DNA from: a virus
Lineage: Duplodnaviria; Caudoviricetes
IMG/VR virus record: IMGVR_UViG_3300028887_000070
Span: 1 to 64,000 of that record
Reading direction: 5' to 3' (one strand)
Length of the DNA: 64,000 nt
The translations under genes were made by a program, and so were the position numbers. Below are positions 4,323 to 16,140 of this stretch, piece after piece (the stretch's first letter is position 1; each line of letters begins with the position of its first letter). The notes beneath the pieces are model-generated. The model saw only the letters and a program-made list of their open reading frames with translations. It was not told the DNA's origin and did no database searches.

Positions 4323-4503
4323 TGTCCTCCTGTTCGTTTTCGAGTATGGCGATCTTTCTGTTGACTTCGTCTAAACGTTCTCTGAGTGTATCCTGAGACG
4401 AAGGACGTAGGCACACTTCCATCATCACTTCTATCTGTTCTCTCTCATTGTAAAGTCTTGTAAGATCGCTCATATCATTTTCCTCCTCTGATGACTTTGA
4501 CAT
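4312..4503 (-). CDS. Small coiled-coil hypothetical protein (true start may be the internal Met at 4473)
   Basis: SD GAGGAGG precedes the internal ATG; overlaps neighbours. Confidence 0.6.
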   Translation of the reverse strand: MSKSSEEENDMSDLTRLYNEREQIEVMMEVCLRPSSQDTLRERLDEVNRKIAILENEQEDNDE

Positions 4504-4750
4504 TGTAAGCTATGTCAAAGTATGATTCTGGCGATGCGTCATACACGATATTGTATACTTCGAGTATGGAGCCGTCATCACATTTGGTTCTTGCTATCTT
4601 AAGGTTAAGCTGTTTGATTCCTATGGTCTCTTTCTCCCAGAAGGTGATGGCATCCATAAAGATAGTACCAATCAGTTCCTTCTTATCAGAAGTTTTCAAC
4701 CATTCGTCTGTGCTGTTCTTCTTGTACAGTATGTAGACTGTATCGCCCAT
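4475..4750 (-). CDS. Hypothetical early protein
   Basis: SD AAAGGAGG; first gene after an early promoter. Confidence 0.75.
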   Translation of the reverse strand: MGDTVYILYKKNSTDEWLKTSDKKELIGTIFMDAITFWEKETIGIKQLNLKIARTKCDDGSILEVYNIVYDASPESYFDIAYNVKVIRGGK

Positions 4751-4810
4751 TGTCTGTACCTCCTTTTTGTTTAGATTACCAGGAAGCCGAAACGACTTCC
4801 TGGCACTTAT

Positions 4811-4820
4811 ATAGTATATA
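4811..4820 (-). promoter_or_regulatory. Early promoter
   Basis: TATATACTAT followed by a 5' hairpin. Confidence 0.65.
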
Positions 4821-4825
4821 ACTTG

Positions 4826-5812
4826 TTAGAACTTTGATATGGCTCCACCGTTGATAGTGATAACGTCCCAGCTCTTGCCAAGATTGCTGTTAGTTGCTCT
4901 ACCAGTAGAACGGTCTATAATTGTTTCTGCGATGAGTTCTGGGTTAGGTCTTGGGTAGTTTGGAACTGACTGTCCAGTTGTTGTGTCAATTACGTCGAAT
5001 GATGCTGCTCCAGTAGAATCGTCAAGAACTACAACCTCTTTGATATTGGGGTTGTGCTCAAGAATCATACGATTCTGCTCTGGAGAGATAGTCTGCATGT
5101 AACTGCCATATCCAGCGTCTACAATATCTCCAGAAGGAGTTATCATTGTACCAGAACCCATCATACCAGGATTAGCGATAGTGTTCTGAGAAGTCTGCTG
5201 AAGGAATGGAGGAAGATTACCAGTGTTGATAGGCGTATTGATATATGCATTGTACATAGCTGCCATGCTTCTATCATCGTCTTCTGCCATCTGAAGTTCT
5301 TTAGTTGCTTGATAACGTTTCATCTCAAGTTCATGAGACTTAGTTGTTACAGCATTAAGTTCTTTGATAGCGGTTAGCTTGTTACCAAGGATACCACAAA
5401 TAGATTCTCCAAGGTTGCTGATGTAGGTATATCTACCTTTCATCTGCTTGTTGTTTCTGATAGCATCAAACTCATTCTTCAATTCGATAGCCATAGTATC
5501 CATCTGCTGGATAGTACCACGAATCATACCTACACCTTCAGCGTAGGTCATTTCATAAGGCTCGTTTGATGTGCAAAGAGGAACGTAAGGCTGTGCTTTA
5601 GGAGCTTCAGCAGGAATTGAAATAGTCTGAGTAGTTGGGAGCGCTACTGCACTAGCTGTCTGCTCTTCAGGCTTCTTCTTTGGAGGACGTCCTCTCTTCC
5701 TTTTTTCGGGTTCTGCTTTTGGTTCTGGTGCCGACTCTGCAGTTGCCGTTGGCTCGACAACCTCAATGTCAATGATTGAACTACCCTGATAGGGTTTTAC
5801 AGATTCAAACAT
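4826..5812 (-). CDS. Hypothetical protein with AT-hook-like motif and coiled coil
   Basis: KRKRGRPPKKK motif; SD AAAGGAGG; late promoter. Confidence 0.7.
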   Translation of the reverse strand: MFESVKPYQGSSIIDIEVVEPTATAESAPEPKAEPEKRKRGRPPKKKPEEQTASAVALPTTQTISIPAEAPKAQPYVPLCTSNEPYEMTYAEGVGMIRGTIQQMDTMAIELKNEFDAIRNNKQMKGRYTYISNLGESICGILGNKLTAIKELNAVTTKSHELEMKRYQATKELQMAEDDDRSMAAMYNAYINTPINTGNLPPFLQQTSQNTIANPGMMGSGTMITPSGDIVDAGYGSYMQTISPEQNRMILEHNPNIKEVVVLDDSTGAASFDVIDTTTGQSVPNYPRPNPELIAETIIDRSTGRATNSNLGKSWDVITINGGAISKF

Positions 5813-5837
5813 GAATTGTACCTCCTTTGGTTAAATT

Positions 5838-5849
5838 TATAAGAGTGTT
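5838..5849 (-). promoter_or_regulatory. Late promoter
   Basis: AACA-CTCTTA-TA. Confidence 0.7.
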
Positions 5850-5860
5850 GGCTGTATCAG

Positions 5861-5872
5861 AACATAATGGTA
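5861..5872 (+). promoter_or_regulatory. Late promoter of candidate sRNA
   Basis: AACA-TAATGG-TA. Confidence 0.55.
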
Positions 5873-6010
5873 AAGGAAGCATAGAACGGGTGGTGTTTCC
5901 TTTCATGGTGTCATAGTCCTCCTAGTTGCTAGTGATTTGGCTGATCATTAGTACGAAGACAATTAACCTCTCTAGAAGACTGGTAGGGTTCTTCCCTACC
6001 AGTCCTTCTT
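5872..6010 (+). ncRNA. Candidate small RNA with exposed anti-SD/anti-AUG segment
   Basis: Late promoter at 5861-5872, no ORF, 5' hairpin, CATAGTCCTCCT at 5912-5923, intrinsic terminator at 5978-6010. Confidence 0.5.
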
Positions 6011-6030
6011 ACGCATGGTTCGTGAATGTG

Positions 6031-6070
6031 TTATATTGTACCATATTGTACTATCTTGTAGCTATTGAAC
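6031..6070. repeat. Imperfect tandem 10-bp direct repeats
   Basis: TTATATTGTA CCATATTGTA CTATCTTGTA GCTATTGAAC directly upstream of the DNA polymerase promoter. Confidence 0.55.
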
Positions 6071-6078
6071 GAGCTCCT

Positions 6079-6090
6079 AACCATTAAATA
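6079..6090 (+). promoter_or_regulatory. Late-type promoter, AACC variant (DNA polymerase)
   Basis: AACC-ATTAAA-TA. Confidence 0.55.
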
Positions 6091-6141
6091 ATCAAGTAAT
6101 CGTACGTGTTTGGGACGATTACGTTCAAAGGAGGACTTTCA

Positions 6142-8142
6142 ATGATACAGATAGGAAACTACCCTTTGCAATACGACTTATCTCTATTGCAGACAATCTA
6201 TCATAGACCAAAGAAGAACAAGAACGGTACATACAGTGACATTCCAGACTCAATGGATCTTGTAATCAAGGACAATGTGAGTGGTGAGAAGTTCATTGAG
6301 ACTATAGAGAATCCAGAGTATACTTGGTATAAGATAAAGAACGAGGTATACATAGACTACAATCTTGCTTTCATAGAGAAAGAGAAGTGTGATGCGATAA
6401 CTGTTCCATATAGAAGACTTCTTAAGAGCATAGCAGAAGCAACTGGTAATGAGACATTCTACGACACCAATGCGGAGAATGGAGATTATAAGAACAATCA
6501 GAGACTTCATGAACATGTAAGAGTCATGGGTTCAGATATGAACATCGAAGACTTCTATAGATTTCAGTTCGGTGAGTCTTATAAGAATGCATTCGGACCG
6601 ATAGATAAGAGCTATCTCGATATCGAGGTTGACTCTAGAACAGCTAAGGGTGACTTCGTAGAACCAGGTGAGTGTCCAATCAATGCAGTGACATTCATAG
6701 ACGATAGAACTCAGACAGTATTCACCTTACTTCTTAGAGATCCATACAATCCCTTATGTCTGGAGTTCGAGAAGTTATTGAACAGTGGCGGATTTGAAGC
6801 AATAGCTAAAGACTTTGTTATCAATGCTGTTGGTGGAATGGAGAAAGCTAAGAAGTATCGTGTAGATACTCTTCAGTTCTCAACGGTTATGTATACTGAC
6901 GAGAAGGAGTTGATTAAGACTCTGTTCGATGTAATCAACAAGCTTGAACCAGACTTCTTGTTGGCATGGAACATGGCGTTCGATATCCCATACATCATCG
7001 AAAGATGTAAGAAGTTAGAGATGAAACCTGAAAAGGTGATGTGTCATCCAGACTTCAGATACAAGGAAGTTAGTTACTTTATCGATGATAAGAACTATAA
7101 TGAGTTTGCTGAGAGAAACGACTACTGTAAGATAAGTAGTAAGACAGTATACTTAGATCAGCTCATTCATTTCGCTAGTAGACGTAAGGGACGTTCAGCA
7201 ATCCCGAATTTCAGACTCGATAGTATAGCAGAGATGACAGTAGGCTTCGGTAAGCTTGACTATCATCACATCTGTGAGAAGCTTGAAGATCTTCCACAGA
7301 AGGACTATCTTACATTCGTACTGTACAATATCATGGACGTTATCTCTCAGTACTGTATCGAGAACAAGGTGAACGATGTAGGTAATGCATACAACAACGT
7401 TCTTCTGAACAACACTCGTATCAGTAAGATATATCGCCAGACGGTATACCTGAAGAATAGAGCCTTTAAGTCATACTGGAGACAGGGCTTCATCATGGGT
7501 AACAACAATAACAAGAATAACACCAAGACGAAGTTCCCAGGTGCTTGGGTATCTGACCCGACAAAGCTTGGACCTTACTCTAAGATGATAGTGAACGGTA
7601 AGCCTATCATGGTATTCAGAAACCTGAACGACTATGACTATAAGAGCCTTTACCCATCTATCACATCAGAACTCAATCTTGCAGCTAACACAATCATTGC
7701 TCGTATCATCATACCTGATCAGGTATATAAGAACGAGAACAGGTTTGCAAGAGAGGATTACAAGTATAAGAGAGAAGGACAGTTCCTTGAGGATTATCAG
7801 TCTCATCAGTGGCTTGAGTTCTATCATAGATGGTTCCATCTCGCTTCATATGAAGAGATGTATGATGATGTCATAACCTACTTCTCAGATATTGTACATC
7901 CGAGAGGTAAGCTTGATCTTCATTGTACAGAGGGAAGATATCTGTTCTATAAGGTACCGAACAGTACTACTCAGACATCTCCATTTGTTCCAAAGTGGGA
8001 GCAGAATGTGATGGATGAGAAAACTGAGTATCCACATAAGCAGTTCCCATTCAATGATGAAGTCAGAACTTTCTCAGAGTTCTATAACGAGATAGAGTCA
8101 AGAGAGGAGAACTGTTATAGTAGAGAGGTAGTAGAGGTATGA
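6142..8142 (+). CDS. Family B DNA polymerase, N-terminal subunit (3'-5' exonuclease plus motif A) of a split polymerase
   Basis: ExoI YLDIEV, ExoII AWNMAFDIPYI, ExoIII YNIMDV, motif A DYKSLYPS; motifs B and C absent; SD AAGGAGG before ATG 6142. Confidence 0.9.
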   Translation: MIQIGNYPLQYDLSLLQTIYHRPKKNKNGTYSDIPDSMDLVIKDNVSGEKFIETIENPEYTWYKIKNEVYIDYNLAFIEKEKCDAITVPYRRLLKSIAEATGNETFYDTNAENGDYKNNQRLHEHVRVMGSDMNIEDFYRFQFGESYKNAFGPIDKSYLDIEVDSRTAKGDFVEPGECPINAVTFIDDRTQTVFTLLLRDPYNPLCLEFEKLLNSGGFEAIAKDFVINAVGGMEKAKKYRVDTLQFSTVMYTDEKELIKTLFDVINKLEPDFLLAWNMAFDIPYIIERCKKLEMKPEKVMCHPDFRYKEVSYFIDDKNYNEFAERNDYCKISSKTVYLDQLIHFASRRKGRSAIPNFRLDSIAEMTVGFGKLDYHHICEKLEDLPQKDYLTFVLYNIMDVISQYCIENKVNDVGNAYNNVLLNNTRISKIYRQTVYLKNRAFKSYWRQGFIMGNNNNKNNTKTKFPGAWVSDPTKLGPYSKMIVNGKPIMVFRNLNDYDYKSLYPSITSELNLAANTIIARIIIPDQVYKNENRFAREDYKYKREGQFLEDYQSHQWLEFYHRWFHLASYEEMYDDVITYFSDIVHPRGKLDLHCTEGRYLFYKVPNSTTQTSPFVPKWEQNVMDEKTEYPHKQFPFNDEVRTFSEFYNEIESREENCYSREVVEV

Positions 8143-11310: not shown

Positions 11311-11338
11311 TGCGGACTGGGAATAATCCCAGTCCGTA
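11311..11338. terminator. Bidirectional intrinsic terminator hairpin
   Basis: CGGACTGGGA-ATAA-TCCCAGTCCG between convergent portal and tube genes. Confidence 0.75.
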
Positions 11339-11375
11339 CCTCTTGTTGTATTTACTGCTAGTAGAGCTATTATAC

Positions 11376-12521
11376 TTACTGCTGGTTCTGAACGTTTGCA
11401 AACTTGTTGGAGATATGCTCTGCATCGCCGATTGCCTGAACCTGCTGTGAGTAGATTCCGTTGCTTCTTCCAAGACCATAGCTTGAAGCTGTTGTCTCGT
11501 CGAATGCGGAACCAACCTTGCCAACTTCGTTTGATCCTCTGTTCTTGAACGCATCTGTAACAACACCGTTAGTGTCAGTCCATGATGTAGCACCAACTGC
11601 ATAAGGATTGCTGTCGCTACCCTCTGTGTTGAAGCTTTCAGCATTGAGACCGAGATTCTCATTAACTCTCTTAAGAGCTTCGTATGTGAAGTTAGTAGAG
11701 TCAACGATGAGACGGCTACCAGTTGTGTTCTGAGGATTACGCATAGCAAGAAGCATTCTCTGAGCAGCGAGTGATACCTGATCGTTGTTGATGAAGAATC
11801 CGTTGAAGGACATTGAGAGTTCACCCCAACCGATTTCACCCTTCTCGCCGTCGTAGAGTGTGCTGAACTCAGCTGTTGTAGGCTGTGCAGCACAGATAAG
11901 GAATGCCTTCTCGATCTTAGTTACTGTGTTATCAGTAAGGAAGTACATGAAGCTGAATACCTCACGGTGTGGTCCAGGATCACGACCAGAAGGTGTGTCA
12001 GGACCAGTGCCGAATGTATACCAGTCAATAAGACCATGGTATGTCTTAGCCTGTGTATCCTTATCCTTGATACCTGTAAGATAAAGCTCGTTGAACTTTG
12101 TCATTACAGAACCAGAACGCTCATAGAATCTCATGGTGAACGTTGTAGAAGCACCCTGAGTTACTCTGTTGATGAGCTGAATAGATCTGATACCATTGCT
12201 GATTTCGCCGTTAGGTTCACCAGTGATGTTCTCGATATTATCGATACCCTTGAAGTCATGCTCCATGATGTGAACGTAGTTTCCTACGATGTTCTGCATC
12301 TCCTCACTGTTGAGAGCAAGGTCACGCATGAAGTCAGGGATGCTGATTACTACGAGCCAAGGATAGCCTTTCTCGTAGAGGTCGAACTGCTCGAGCTGTG
12401 AGAAGTCAGTAACACCTCTCATGAGGTTATACTCAAGAAGGTTACGAGGAGTCTTAAGGCCCTTGAAGACTTCCTGGCCAACACCAGTCGCAGTGGATTT
12501 AACGTTGTTATCTGCTGCCAT
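11376..12521 (-). CDS. Tail tube protein
   Basis: Directly downstream of the sheath gene; beta-rich tube-like pattern (FTMRFYE, ELSMSFNG). Confidence 0.65.
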   Translation of the reverse strand: MAADNNVKSTATGVGQEVFKGLKTPRNLLEYNLMRGVTDFSQLEQFDLYEKGYPWLVVISIPDFMRDLALNSEEMQNIVGNYVHIMEHDFKGIDNIENITGEPNGEISNGIRSIQLINRVTQGASTTFTMRFYERSGSVMTKFNELYLTGIKDKDTQAKTYHGLIDWYTFGTGPDTPSGRDPGPHREVFSFMYFLTDNTVTKIEKAFLICAAQPTTAEFSTLYDGEKGEIGWGELSMSFNGFFINNDQVSLAAQRMLLAMRNPQNTTGSRLIVDSTNFTYEALKRVNENLGLNAESFNTEGSDSNPYAVGATSWTDTNGVVTDAFKNRGSNEVGKVGSAFDETTASSYGLGRSNGIYSQQVQAIGDAEHISNKFANVQNQQ

Positions 12522-12538
12522 AATCTATTCCTCCCTTC

Positions 12539-15271
12539 TTATACTGTAGTCACATCGCTACTCAGTGTTGAGTAGTTAAGTGCTGTGATTGTGAAGATTT
12601 CAGCCTGTGCAAACGGTCTGAATACAACCTCGATAGCTGCATAGTAGATCTTGTTTGCTACAGAGTTCTCGTCCTGAACGTACTTGAATCTCAGAGCAGC
12701 GAACTTAGAACGGAATACCTTGAGGACTTCCTCTACTGAACGCTGGTAAGTAGACAGGTCGTTGTTATCGATGAACTTGTATCTTGAGGCAGGGCAAGCC
12801 TTTCTTATAGCCTGCATTACCTGATGAACAAGCATGATGTTGTTGATGTATGAGAAGTCTGAATCCTTAGGATTGAGTGTGAACTCTGTATCCATTGTGA
12901 AGATTCCGTTGTAGTATGAGCCGTAGTTAACCTTAAGGTCTGTCATCTGCTGCTTCTCATTAACGATTGTCTCATCATCTGAAGGATAAGTATCGCCAAT
13001 GTATGAACGTGATGTCATTGCAGAAGAAGGATAGATCTTAGGAATGTAGTTTACAGTACCCTCGATGAAGTCTGTAAAGATGATACCATAACCCTGACCA
13101 GCGAACGGACGGCCAACACCGTTGATGAAGTGCTTAACCATGAGTCTTGACAGAGCATATGTAGCTGTAACGGTGATCTGCTTATTTGAATAAGGATCAC
13201 GGATATCGCCGTAGATAGAAGTAACAGCACAGTTACGATCATGGATATAGAAGTTTGTTGCTTCCTCATCAGGTGGGAACTCGTTGTCATCGTCTACTAC
13301 ATTGATAAGGCGCTCAACGTCTTCATATGCCTTAACGTCTGTATTGAGGTCAAGGTAAACGAAGAAGTCGCCTCTGTATGCAGCAAGCTTCTGAATAGCG
13401 AGCTTAACCTTCTTATCGTAGTTAGCATCGAATACGCAGTTCGGGAACCATACGTCAAGATTGAAGATGTCTCTGTCGAACTGGCCGTCGAAGAACTTTC
13501 TGTACTGGTTCTGGTAAGAGAGATCCCATGAGTACTCCTGAACTGTAACAGTTACATCGTACTTATATGTACCAGTCTCTACACCATTCTGAACCTTAGT
13601 AACTACAGCTGATACATAGATGTATCCGCCACCAGTAGTAGCAACCTTGAGCTTTGTAGCAGATGAATGATCATCACCTGTCTCAAAGTCTGCACCGCTG
13701 AAGTTGATACCAAGCTCAGGGATAAGCTTCAGAAGATTGATAGCAGCAGTACACTTTGTATGTGTTTCAGCTGTTTCTCCTGCAACCATGAATCCGACGT
13801 TAGCTGTAGTACCAGCAGCTAATGTAGTGATAGCCTGTGGTGATGTGGCGGTATCGTATACTGGAGGTACATCGCCTACGTTAGCCTTAACAGTTACAGT
13901 AGTTGTGTATACATTGTTATCGATTACACCATCGCTACCATAACGAAGATTCTCAAAGATATTCTGCTTTGAGCGTGTCTTGTAGTTATAGTAGTAGTAT
14001 GTGATATTATTATCGCCGCTGTCAAGGTTATTAGCACTTGAGTTAGCAAGGCTGTAGAGGTCTGCTGTAGCGCCTCTTGCGATGCGGTTATCGACGAGTG
14101 TATTACCAGACAGATCGTGATCGAAGAGACAGTCTGCATCGTCAAAGAGATACTCATTTGTGATGCTGAGCTCATCGTTGATTATCTGCATAAGCTTATC
14201 ATAAGCATCGTAGTAGTACTTAACCTTGATCTGATCAGACTTCAGGTTAACAGCTGACTCGATATCAAATGTGTAGCCTGTGTTTGTGTTTCTTGAGTAA
14301 GGATTTACAGTGAATGCATATGTCTCAAGTGTTCTTCCTGTTACAGAATCAGCAACCTTGAGTGTATATACTGCCTTACCGATAGACTTAGATGTGTTAA
14401 TATCGAAAACGATAGCATAGTTCTTCAGAGAAGCACCACGACCGTTATCGAAGATCGAGAAGAGCGGGAAGAAATACTCACCGCCGTTAGCAGCAGCATA
14501 AACAGTTGAAAGGAACTTAGCCTGAACTTTAGCTTTCTTTTCATCTGTATCAGCTGATGTATAGTCAGGATCTTCTGCTGAACCACCAGGTGCAGTGAAC
14601 TCAACCTCATTGGAGTTACCATTGAGGATTGAACCAGCAGCATACACATCACCAGTCCATGTACCGTTATCAAGAGGGATGTTCTCTGTAGATGTGCCGC
14701 TGGTGTATACACCAACGAGACCAGTGTTCATTGCGAGAGTTTCCTTCATCTCAATCTCACTAGAAATAGTATCCTTATGAGTCTTGTACATGAACTTGCT
14801 CTCTACAAATGAAGAGTCGCCAGGTGTGTTAGCATTGTCTTTTATAGATACAACTACAGGACGAAGAACATACTTTGCAGTAGTTCCGAATGTAGCAGCA
14901 TCGATGTATCCGTCTTCATTCTTAGTGAATGTAACGTCTACCTGCTTTGAAAGTACAACGCCGACTGTAGCGTTGCCAAGCATAGCGGAGTCAAGAACAG
15001 CTCTCTTTGAGATAAGTCTCGCTCCTTCATTGATGTCCATGGAAGCCTGGAGAAGAGGCTGCTTATATGTGTTGAACTTGATCTTGTCCTGTGAACCGTA
15101 GAGGTTATAGAAACGCTGACCATCAACAAGAAGCATATCTTCTGGTCCCTTAGGTGCTCTGAAAGTAGTCATATAGACAGGTGCTGAGTTGCTGACTTGC
15201 TGAATCGGCACTGCAGCACTAGCATCAGAATGATCTCTCAGGACAAATTGTGTGCCAGGATATCTTGCCAT
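12539..15271 (-). CDS. Contractile tail sheath protein
   Basis: N-terminal YPGT and APKGPE; C-terminal sheath domain (SYINN, IEVVFRPFAQAEIFTI); 910 aa. Confidence 0.85.
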   Translation of the reverse strand: MARYPGTQFVLRDHSDASAAVPIQQVSNSAPVYMTTFRAPKGPEDMLLVDGQRFYNLYGSQDKIKFNTYKQPLLQASMDINEGARLISKRAVLDSAMLGNATVGVVLSKQVDVTFTKNEDGYIDAATFGTTAKYVLRPVVVSIKDNANTPGDSSFVESKFMYKTHKDTISSEIEMKETLAMNTGLVGVYTSGTSTENIPLDNGTWTGDVYAAGSILNGNSNEVEFTAPGGSAEDPDYTSADTDEKKAKVQAKFLSTVYAAANGGEYFFPLFSIFDNGRGASLKNYAIVFDINTSKSIGKAVYTLKVADSVTGRTLETYAFTVNPYSRNTNTGYTFDIESAVNLKSDQIKVKYYYDAYDKLMQIINDELSITNEYLFDDADCLFDHDLSGNTLVDNRIARGATADLYSLANSSANNLDSGDNNITYYYYNYKTRSKQNIFENLRYGSDGVIDNNVYTTTVTVKANVGDVPPVYDTATSPQAITTLAAGTTANVGFMVAGETAETHTKCTAAINLLKLIPELGINFSGADFETGDDHSSATKLKVATTGGGYIYVSAVVTKVQNGVETGTYKYDVTVTVQEYSWDLSYQNQYRKFFDGQFDRDIFNLDVWFPNCVFDANYDKKVKLAIQKLAAYRGDFFVYLDLNTDVKAYEDVERLINVVDDDNEFPPDEEATNFYIHDRNCAVTSIYGDIRDPYSNKQITVTATYALSRLMVKHFINGVGRPFAGQGYGIIFTDFIEGTVNYIPKIYPSSAMTSRSYIGDTYPSDDETIVNEKQQMTDLKVNYGSYYNGIFTMDTEFTLNPKDSDFSYINNIMLVHQVMQAIRKACPASRYKFIDNNDLSTYQRSVEEVLKVFRSKFAALRFKYVQDENSVANKIYYAAIEVVFRPFAQAEIFTITALNYSTLSSDVTTV

Positions 15272-16130: not shown

Positions 16131-16140
16131 TATATATTAT
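16131..16140 (+). promoter_or_regulatory. Early promoter
   Basis: TATATATTAT. Confidence 0.65.

Follow-up and report, generated by a model that had tools for sequence, protein, structure and literature searches.

A probable late small RNA gene with predicted unpaired anti-SD patches upstream of the DNA polymerase gene of an AR9-like jumbo phage

Genomic context

The window, by which we mean the whole stretch of DNA analysed here, comprises the first 64 kb (bases 1-64000) of a virus record that is 231,846 bp (231.8 kb) in length, and includes a 329-nt gap (5813-6141) between two diverging genes, in which the RNA locus described below is located. The left flank of the gap is formed by a leftward gene (4826-5812, - strand) encoding a 328-aa protein with no family match, and the right flank by the rightward gene for PolB, a B-family DNA polymerase (6142-8142, + strand). 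Between them, a structured non-coding RNA gene of ~140 nt, predicted to constitute a transcription unit of its own, extends on the + strand from 5872 to about 6012.

The phage is a jumbo phage of the AR9/PBS1 type with multisubunit RNA polymerases of its own. Genes for homologues of the beta and beta' subunits are present, and neither a sigma factor nor a T7-type polymerase was found among the genes of the phage. The nearest isolates are the Bacillus phages AR9 and PBS1, with a polymerase (PolB) identity of ~31%, and searches of a phage database with the intergenic region at the DNA level and with the 328-aa neighbour at the protein level returned no match.

The B-family DNA polymerase of this phage is split, the gene at 6142-8142 encoding the N-terminal part and a second gene (genome 210462-212618) encoding the C-terminal part (Pfam divDNApol). 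Both halves are preceded by a leader of ~57 nt (window 6079-6141; genome 210401-210461, contig L002) that is 93% identical between the two copies and consists of an AACC-variant late promoter, a hairpin (GTAATCGT...ACGATTAC) and an SD sequence. The PolB copy is invariant among close relatives, and the leader may represent a shared translational operator or a device co-regulating both polymerase halves. Upstream of it, two TATTGTAC repeats (6034-6041 and 6044-6051) lie within a variable stretch (6010-6075) that is deleted in L003, L019, L020, L021 and L022 and is therefore dispensable.

Promoters and boundaries of the transcription unit

In phage AR9, late promoters follow the consensus AACA-(6N)-T[A/G], with transcription starting at the final base, and early promoters follow the consensus AAATATATATTAT-6N-G (PMC5312081). 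The promoter classes of the present phage were found by k-mer counts in the intergenic regions of its genome, which yielded a first motif, TATATATTAT-N6-G, equivalent to the published AR9 early class, and a second, AACAT-N3-TATAA(T), located 31-42 nt before start codons and equivalent to the AR9 late class. Together, the two classes show that the phage uses the AR9 transcription grammar despite a PolB identity of only ~31%. Ten copies of TATATATTAT-N6-G lie upstream of genes, for example at window positions 16131, 60217 and 63396 on the + strand and 31811 and 58385 on the - strand. At about 4800-4816 (- strand) stands an early-like promoter, TATATACTAT-N6-G, with a hairpin (GCCAGGAAG...CUUCCUGG, 4776-4803, - strand) immediately behind it, where the mRNA of gene 4475-4750 is predicted to begin.

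The promoter assigned to the small RNA, AACATAATGGTA (5861-5872, + strand), fits the AR9 late consensus (AACA-N6-TA) and is of the type used by the non-virion RNA polymerase (nvRNAP). Its predicted transcription start, A5872, is the very first base of the 5' hairpin SL1, and the predicted start likewise falls on the first hairpin base in L026, L027, L044 and L045, whose hairpin sequences are unrelated; in L046 the hairpin lies a few bases inward of it. The promoter is kept in the relatives as AACAT..., with AACC in L046. The late promoter proposed in the first-pass annotation thus agrees with the AR9 consensus, and of the 23 matches that the extended late motif has across the genome, 20 are intergenic, with a start codon usually following at 31-42 nt; the window contains nine matches against 4.7 expected. 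The bare motif AACA-N6-TR, on the other hand, is not enriched in the window (73 found, 84 expected), so it is the extended motif, together with its conservation, that carries the promoter call.

The flanking genes are equipped with promoters of their own. That of the left gene, AACACTCTTATA (5838-5849, - strand), is 37 nt from the ATG, like other late promoters, and is kept in relatives; this promoter and that of the small RNA point away from each other, 11 nt apart. PolB is preceded by a late-type promoter of the AACC variant, AACCATTAAATA (6079-6090, + strand), downstream of the terminator hairpin, and relatives carry AACAATATTATA, AACAATCTTATA or AACAGTATAGTA at this position. As the late promoters of both PolB and the left gene lie outside the ~140 nt, the small RNA is a separate unit. 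A sigma-70 scan found no sigma-70-type promoter for the small RNA unit and did not call its 3' hairpin as a terminator.

Two look-alike promoters elsewhere in the genome were considered as possible paralogues and rejected. The first (genome position 123219) belongs to a small protein gene: in the region 123219-123443 (L041 220-443), AACATAATAGTA, a late promoter, precedes UCUCCUCUAGAAAGGAG, within which a CU stretch is able to pair with the SD, and an ORF of ~67 codons missed by the gene caller comes next. The second, at 69580, lies antisense inside a gene start. It is part of a 13-mer, AACATAATGGTAA (genome 69568-69580, - strand), that is identical to the small RNA promoter and antisense in the likely 5' end of a + strand gene. 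The match is due to chance, or else the sequence is an antisense late promoter.

Predicted architecture of the RNA

The two pyrimidine patches, the 5' hairpin and the 3' hairpin listed by the first-pass annotation were all recovered at the positions given there. SL1, the 5'-terminal hairpin (5872-5903), has ten base pairs, one of them G.U, with AAAGGAAGCA (5872-5881) pairing with TGTTTCCTTT (5894-5903); written as two arms, the hairpin is AAAGGAAGCA/UGUUUCCUUU. Linker 1 (5904-5928, CAUGGUGUCAUAGUCCUCCUAGUUG) carries the anti-SD sequence GUCCUCCU and CAU triplets, CATAGTCCTCCT occupying positions 5912-5923. It is followed by SL2 (5929-5951), a 9-bp hairpin with a UGGCU loop and covarying pairs, and by linker 2 (5952-5973), which ends in a second CU patch, AACCUCUCU (5965-5973), placed immediately 5' of the terminator; the same positions are occupied by AACCTCTCT. 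SL3 (5974-6014) comprises a terminator-like hairpin, the stem of which (5974-6009) has 15 bp and one bulged C, and a weak U-rich tail. All of these elements are on the + strand.

The terminator, described as strong in the first-pass annotation, has a stable, GC-rich 15-bp stem, and clear U-tracts follow the hairpin in the relatives L027, L044, L045 and L046, on the + strand only; in this genome the U tail (UCCUUCUUAC) is weak, so that read-through into PolB is possible. No credible + strand ORF exists in the RNA region, a tRNA/tmRNA scan found none, and the Rfam covariance models, including RsaE/RoxS, gave no match to positions 5000-7000 at E values up to 10.

Separate folds of the homologues share a common plan: a 5' hairpin at or near +1, a CU linker, one or two inner hairpins, a CCUCUC-like linker and a terminator. 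The CU patches in the linkers are predicted to be largely unpaired in most relatives, with probabilities of 0.5-0.97; for the linker-1 motif the predicted unpaired probability is 0.55 in this genome and 0.9-0.97 in L026 and L027.

Conservation, covariation and strand

Relatives were gathered through PolB and through homologues of the 328-aa neighbour, followed by contig look-ups. The resulting alignment comprises thirteen distinct intergenic regions, and the covariation test was performed on ten close sequences. Within the window clade, hardly any position varies in the promoter or in the first ~55 nt of the RNA; between the conserved parts, variable stretches with indels are found. Relative to L023, the 5' 67 nt are 96% identical, compared with nucleotide identities of 66% for the left gene and 80% for PolB. 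Judging from this excess of 5' identity over the flanks and from the pairing of the stems, the feature is more than a chance arrangement. The invariant block partly coincides with two promoters, and some of its conservation is accordingly at the DNA level.

In the ten close sequences, 99% of the stem cells are paired and four pairs have changed on both sides. The covariation score is 0.158, compared with 0.081 in shuffles (none of 500 reached 0.158), and every slid control scored far lower. SL2 contributes two double-sided changes (A-U to G-C and U-A to A-U) and three one-sided changes through G.U, and SL3 contributes two pairs with A-U to U-A changes. SL1 is invariant in the close relatives, and in L026, L027, L044 and L045 its place is taken by other hairpins. 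The SL3 stems of these four and of L046 are wholly different in sequence.

A covariance model, R1, was built from the close relatives with L026 and L027 left out. It finds both, L027 with an E value of 2.7e-4 and L026 with an E value of 7e-3, although they are only ~55% identical. Scanning with R1 revealed no second copy in the 231.8-kb genome and no homologue in L011-L014, and a pattern scan of viral contigs returned only two already-known relatives. In L005 and L006, whose neighbour protein is 32% identical, the gene order is kept and a recognisable RNA homologue was not found; in AR9 the gene order around PolB differs, leaving no positional homologue to compare.

The layout is kept where the neighbour protein is only 41-59% identical (41-46% in L044, L045 and L046). 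Within the window clade linker 1 shows no change and carries GUCCUCC(U); L026 and L027 retain the layout and both CU patches, GUCCUCC included. L044, L045 and L046 have patches rich in C and U as well, though the exact GUCCUCC motif is missing from them. Immediately before the terminator, CCUCUC or a close variant (UUCCUCUCUC, UUCCUCUG or UUCUCC) occurs in every relative examined, to a neighbour identity as low as 41%, with the pattern (A/U)YCCUCUC or a close variant. The anti-SD patches of the first-pass annotation are accordingly CU-rich and conserved, besides being predicted to be largely unpaired.

The strand can be assigned from the substitutions. About 27 stem cells that are G.U on the + strand would be A.C mismatches if read on the - strand; the G.U-preserving changes and the U-tracts fit the + strand only, and the RNA is therefore assigned to that strand. 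The non-coding + strand unit with a late promoter and a terminator that had been proposed from the letters of this genome is supported by the AR9-type motif, the layout and the covariation. On these grounds, comprising transcription-unit signals, strand, structure and patch conservation as read from the compared sequences, the locus is well supported as a real, conserved, late small RNA gene.

The same data bear on the proposal that the locus acts as DNA, either as regulator sites for the back-to-back promoters or as part of a replication origin, the hairpins being DNA inverted repeats. The invariant block does hold two diverging promoters 11 nt apart, the SL1 inverted repeat starts at the last base of the promoter motif, and the locus adjoins PolB and the ATTGTAC repeats at 6034-6051. 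However, the stems tolerate G.U but not A.C, a sign of RNA, their sequences turn over fully while the pairing, the U-tracts and the CU patches stay, and the ATTGTAC stretch is deleted in several relatives, which makes a DNA-level element very unlikely.

Less probable still is that the motif is a minus-strand ribosome-binding site, serving a Met-Thr-Pro minigene, the rival that the first-pass annotation had itself named, or a 33-codon ORF (5906-5805). On the - strand, AGGAGGACTATGACACCATGA gives ATG ACA CCA TGA, and a further ATG lies at 5906; the window clade retains the minigene, and ATG ACG TAA occurs at normal spacing in L026. The ORF starting at 5906, however, has 16, 33 or >36-50 codons depending on the relative, since 1-nt indels in the loop of SL1 shift the frame beyond residue 7. 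The distance from SD to ATG is 11-12 nt for the ORF and 3-4 nt for the minigene, against 7-9 nt in the genes of the phage (115 of 131), and no early or late promoter motif is found upstream on the - strand within the gap. As the G.U evidence and the polarity of the terminator also favour the + strand, the unconserved frame and atypical spacing leave the minus-strand minigene an unlikely reading, to which we assign hardly any weight.

Complementarity to ribosome-binding sites

For the + strand RNA, the question is what the unpaired patches would bind. The SD consensus of the phage is AAAGGAGG, and the CU patches are complementary to its GGAGG core; taken in full, linker 1 complements an SD, a spacer and ACC-AUG. 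As to the anti-AUG element of the first-pass annotation, the CAU that is in better register with a real start region is that of CAUGG at 5904-5908 and not that at 5912-5914. Against phage start regions, linker 1 gives a mean predicted duplex energy of -16.7 kcal/mol, compared with -15.1 +/- 1.0 kcal/mol in 60 shuffled controls in which CCUCCU was kept and the flanks were shuffled; sites at -22 or below number 23, compared with 8.3 +/- 7.3 in the controls, and three of the 60 shuffles were as good. The genome contains 186 AGGAGG sites, and duplexes averaging about -17 kcal/mol are predicted with nearly every phage start region. The anti-SD complementarity is thus generic to nearly all phage ribosome-binding sites.

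Individual targets do not stand out from this background. The first-pass annotation correctly reported 9 nt of complementarity to the ribosome-binding site of PolB (6129-6137), but AGGAGGACT occurs eight times in the genome, and in L003, L019 and L023 the site reads AGGAGGAAT while the RNA there is unchanged; L022 keeps AGGAGGACT. The best linker-1 matches (genome 144298 and 210462) are barely better than shuffled controls, and the best linker-2 match, to the gene at 1352-2647, scores -18.7 kcal/mol, only marginally better than the minimum in shuffles (-15.2 +/- 1.6). Of the candidates tested, neither PolB nor the left gene nor the gene at 1352-2647 keeps its complementarity in relatives. The specific targets proposed earlier are not upheld. 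The idea that the RNA silences early or replication mRNAs late in infection fares no better: duplex energies over all phage start regions show no difference between early and late genes, and PolB and the left gene carry late-type promoters themselves, which leaves such silencing without specific support. On the host side, the 23-mer ATGACACCATGAAAGGAAACACC has no exact-complement match in 185,579 prokaryote genomes. The CU patches are presumably complementary to host ribosome-binding sites as well; the host must be a bacterium with strong SD use.

The 9-nt complementarity to the PolB SD (AGGAGGACU), the position of the RNA directly upstream of PolB on the same strand and the weak U tail in this genome could also be accommodated by action in cis. 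The RNA would then belong to a long PolB leader, made from the upstream late promoter, with its terminator serving as attenuator and CCUCCU folding back on the PolB SD in transcripts that read through. The small RNA would be a by-product of premature termination, as described for eight of the 11 small RNAs of phage 201phi2-1, which arise in this way in 5'UTRs (PMC11512511). Nevertheless, in every relative a conserved late promoter and hairpin leader of PolB follow the terminator, good U-tracts are present in relatives, L003, L019, L023, L026 and L027 retain only GGAGG of the complementarity to the PolB site, and the riboswitch and leader families of Rfam give no match. Cis action consequently appears improbable.

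For a separate RNA acting in trans, the following sequence of events can be proposed. The phage non-virion RNA polymerase would make an RNA of ~140 nt from the late promoter, and the hairpin at its 5' end and the terminator hairpin at its 3' end would stabilize it. Between the hairpins, two single-stranded CU-rich patches, GUCCUCCU and AACCUCUCU, would be displayed, which may pair in trans with the G-rich SD and start-codon regions of phage or host mRNAs. Once late transcription is running, such pairing would lower translation or alter mRNA stability. Here, the accumulation of a discrete RNA, its pairing with mRNAs and the choice of those mRNAs are inferred. Trans-acting repression, as put forward by the first-pass annotation, is thus an interpretation, and anti-SD pairing with mRNAs, the likeliest mode of action, is a tentative proposal that has a little under an even chance of being correct.

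An RNA that is real but acts as a decoy, or as a protein-binding RNA, would account for some of these observations differently. CCUCCU has the same sense as the anti-SD of 16S rRNA, and the RNA could imitate the CCUCC tail of 16S rRNA and so sequester SD sequences globally, or be a sponge for a factor recognising pyrimidine-rich or anti-SD sequences. The generic nature of the complementarity, which is not gene-specific, and the lack of a conserved phage target among the candidates tested agree with such a role, as does the near-invariance of ~45 nt of the 5' part at 59% neighbour-protein identity, which exceeds the 6-9 nt that a seed needs. On the other hand, no partner protein came to light, and the distant relatives have no long invariant block but short CU patches only, which fits short seeds better. 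We consider this role unlikely. A bolder version, to which we attach little credence, is that late in infection the phage makes a mimic of the 16S rRNA anti-SD tail that competes for SD sequences throughout the cell or titrates a factor acting on the anti-SD. If this were true, the set of translated mRNAs would be reprogrammed, for example towards less SD-dependent messages, and the RNA would be a global translation switch rather than a gene-specific small RNA.

Relation to known RNAs

Of the described small RNAs, the closest in design are RoxS and RsaE from B. subtilis and S. aureus, which are likewise short structured RNAs with their own promoter and terminator and several unpaired C-rich patches. 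The C-rich regions of RoxS bind SD sequences and block initiation (PMC5419742). The phage RNA shows no sequence or Rfam relationship to them, is encoded by a lytic jumbo phage under a promoter for a phage RNA polymerase, and has CCUCC and CCUCUC patches, the exact anti-SD core, instead of CCCC.

A second parallel is offered by the small RNAs of the phages 201phi2-1, phiKZ and PA5oct, which are described as having a promoter soon followed by a terminator, some being intergenic and conserved in position among giant phages (PMC11512511). The RNA described here resembles them as a short promoter-terminator unit in an intergenic, conserved position. Those RNAs, however, are from Pseudomonas phages, use other promoter types and have no sequence relationship to it; the conserved example among the Pseudomonas jumbo phages derives from the 5'UTR upstream of a tail gene, and an anti-SD motif is absent from the passages considered (PMC11512511). 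They were also mapped experimentally, while the present RNA is predicted from sequence.

With AR9, the phage shares the promoter grammar, including a start at the last base of the motif, and some AR9 late promoters drive non-mRNA, antisense transcripts (PMC5312081). The RNA described here is intergenic and antisense to no gene, and the gene order around PolB is different in AR9, where an early promoter lies upstream and a diverging gene is absent. The terms 'small RNA' and 'noncoding' are absent from the AR9 transcriptome paper (PMC5312081).

The phage RNA falls outside every described family. It represents a new phage RNA family, which may well work like the C-rich small RNAs of Firmicutes. 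To our knowledge, little work has been done on regulatory RNAs in lytic phages, jumbo phages especially. The family is conserved in position and defined in sequence, with clear rules for promoter, structure and motif, and spans a broad clade of uncultivated AR9-like phages with Firmicute-type ribosome-binding sites. R1 provides a search model for annotating related phage genomes, and the exposed anti-SD patches lead to a testable hypothesis of translation control at the RNA level in late infection.

RNA-level data

One activated-sludge RNA run, X1, contains related sequence, in the form of assembled contigs of a ~90% relative only. One contig spans 4415-6978, and thus the whole gap, at a depth of about 14; it is silent on a discrete small RNA either way. 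Another contig from the same run covers 11335-14524, with the genes 11376-12521 and 12539-15271, the latter encoding a 910-aa protein with no family match. Its depth is about 155, against about 14 for its neighbours, which suggests a very highly expressed late gene in the related phage.
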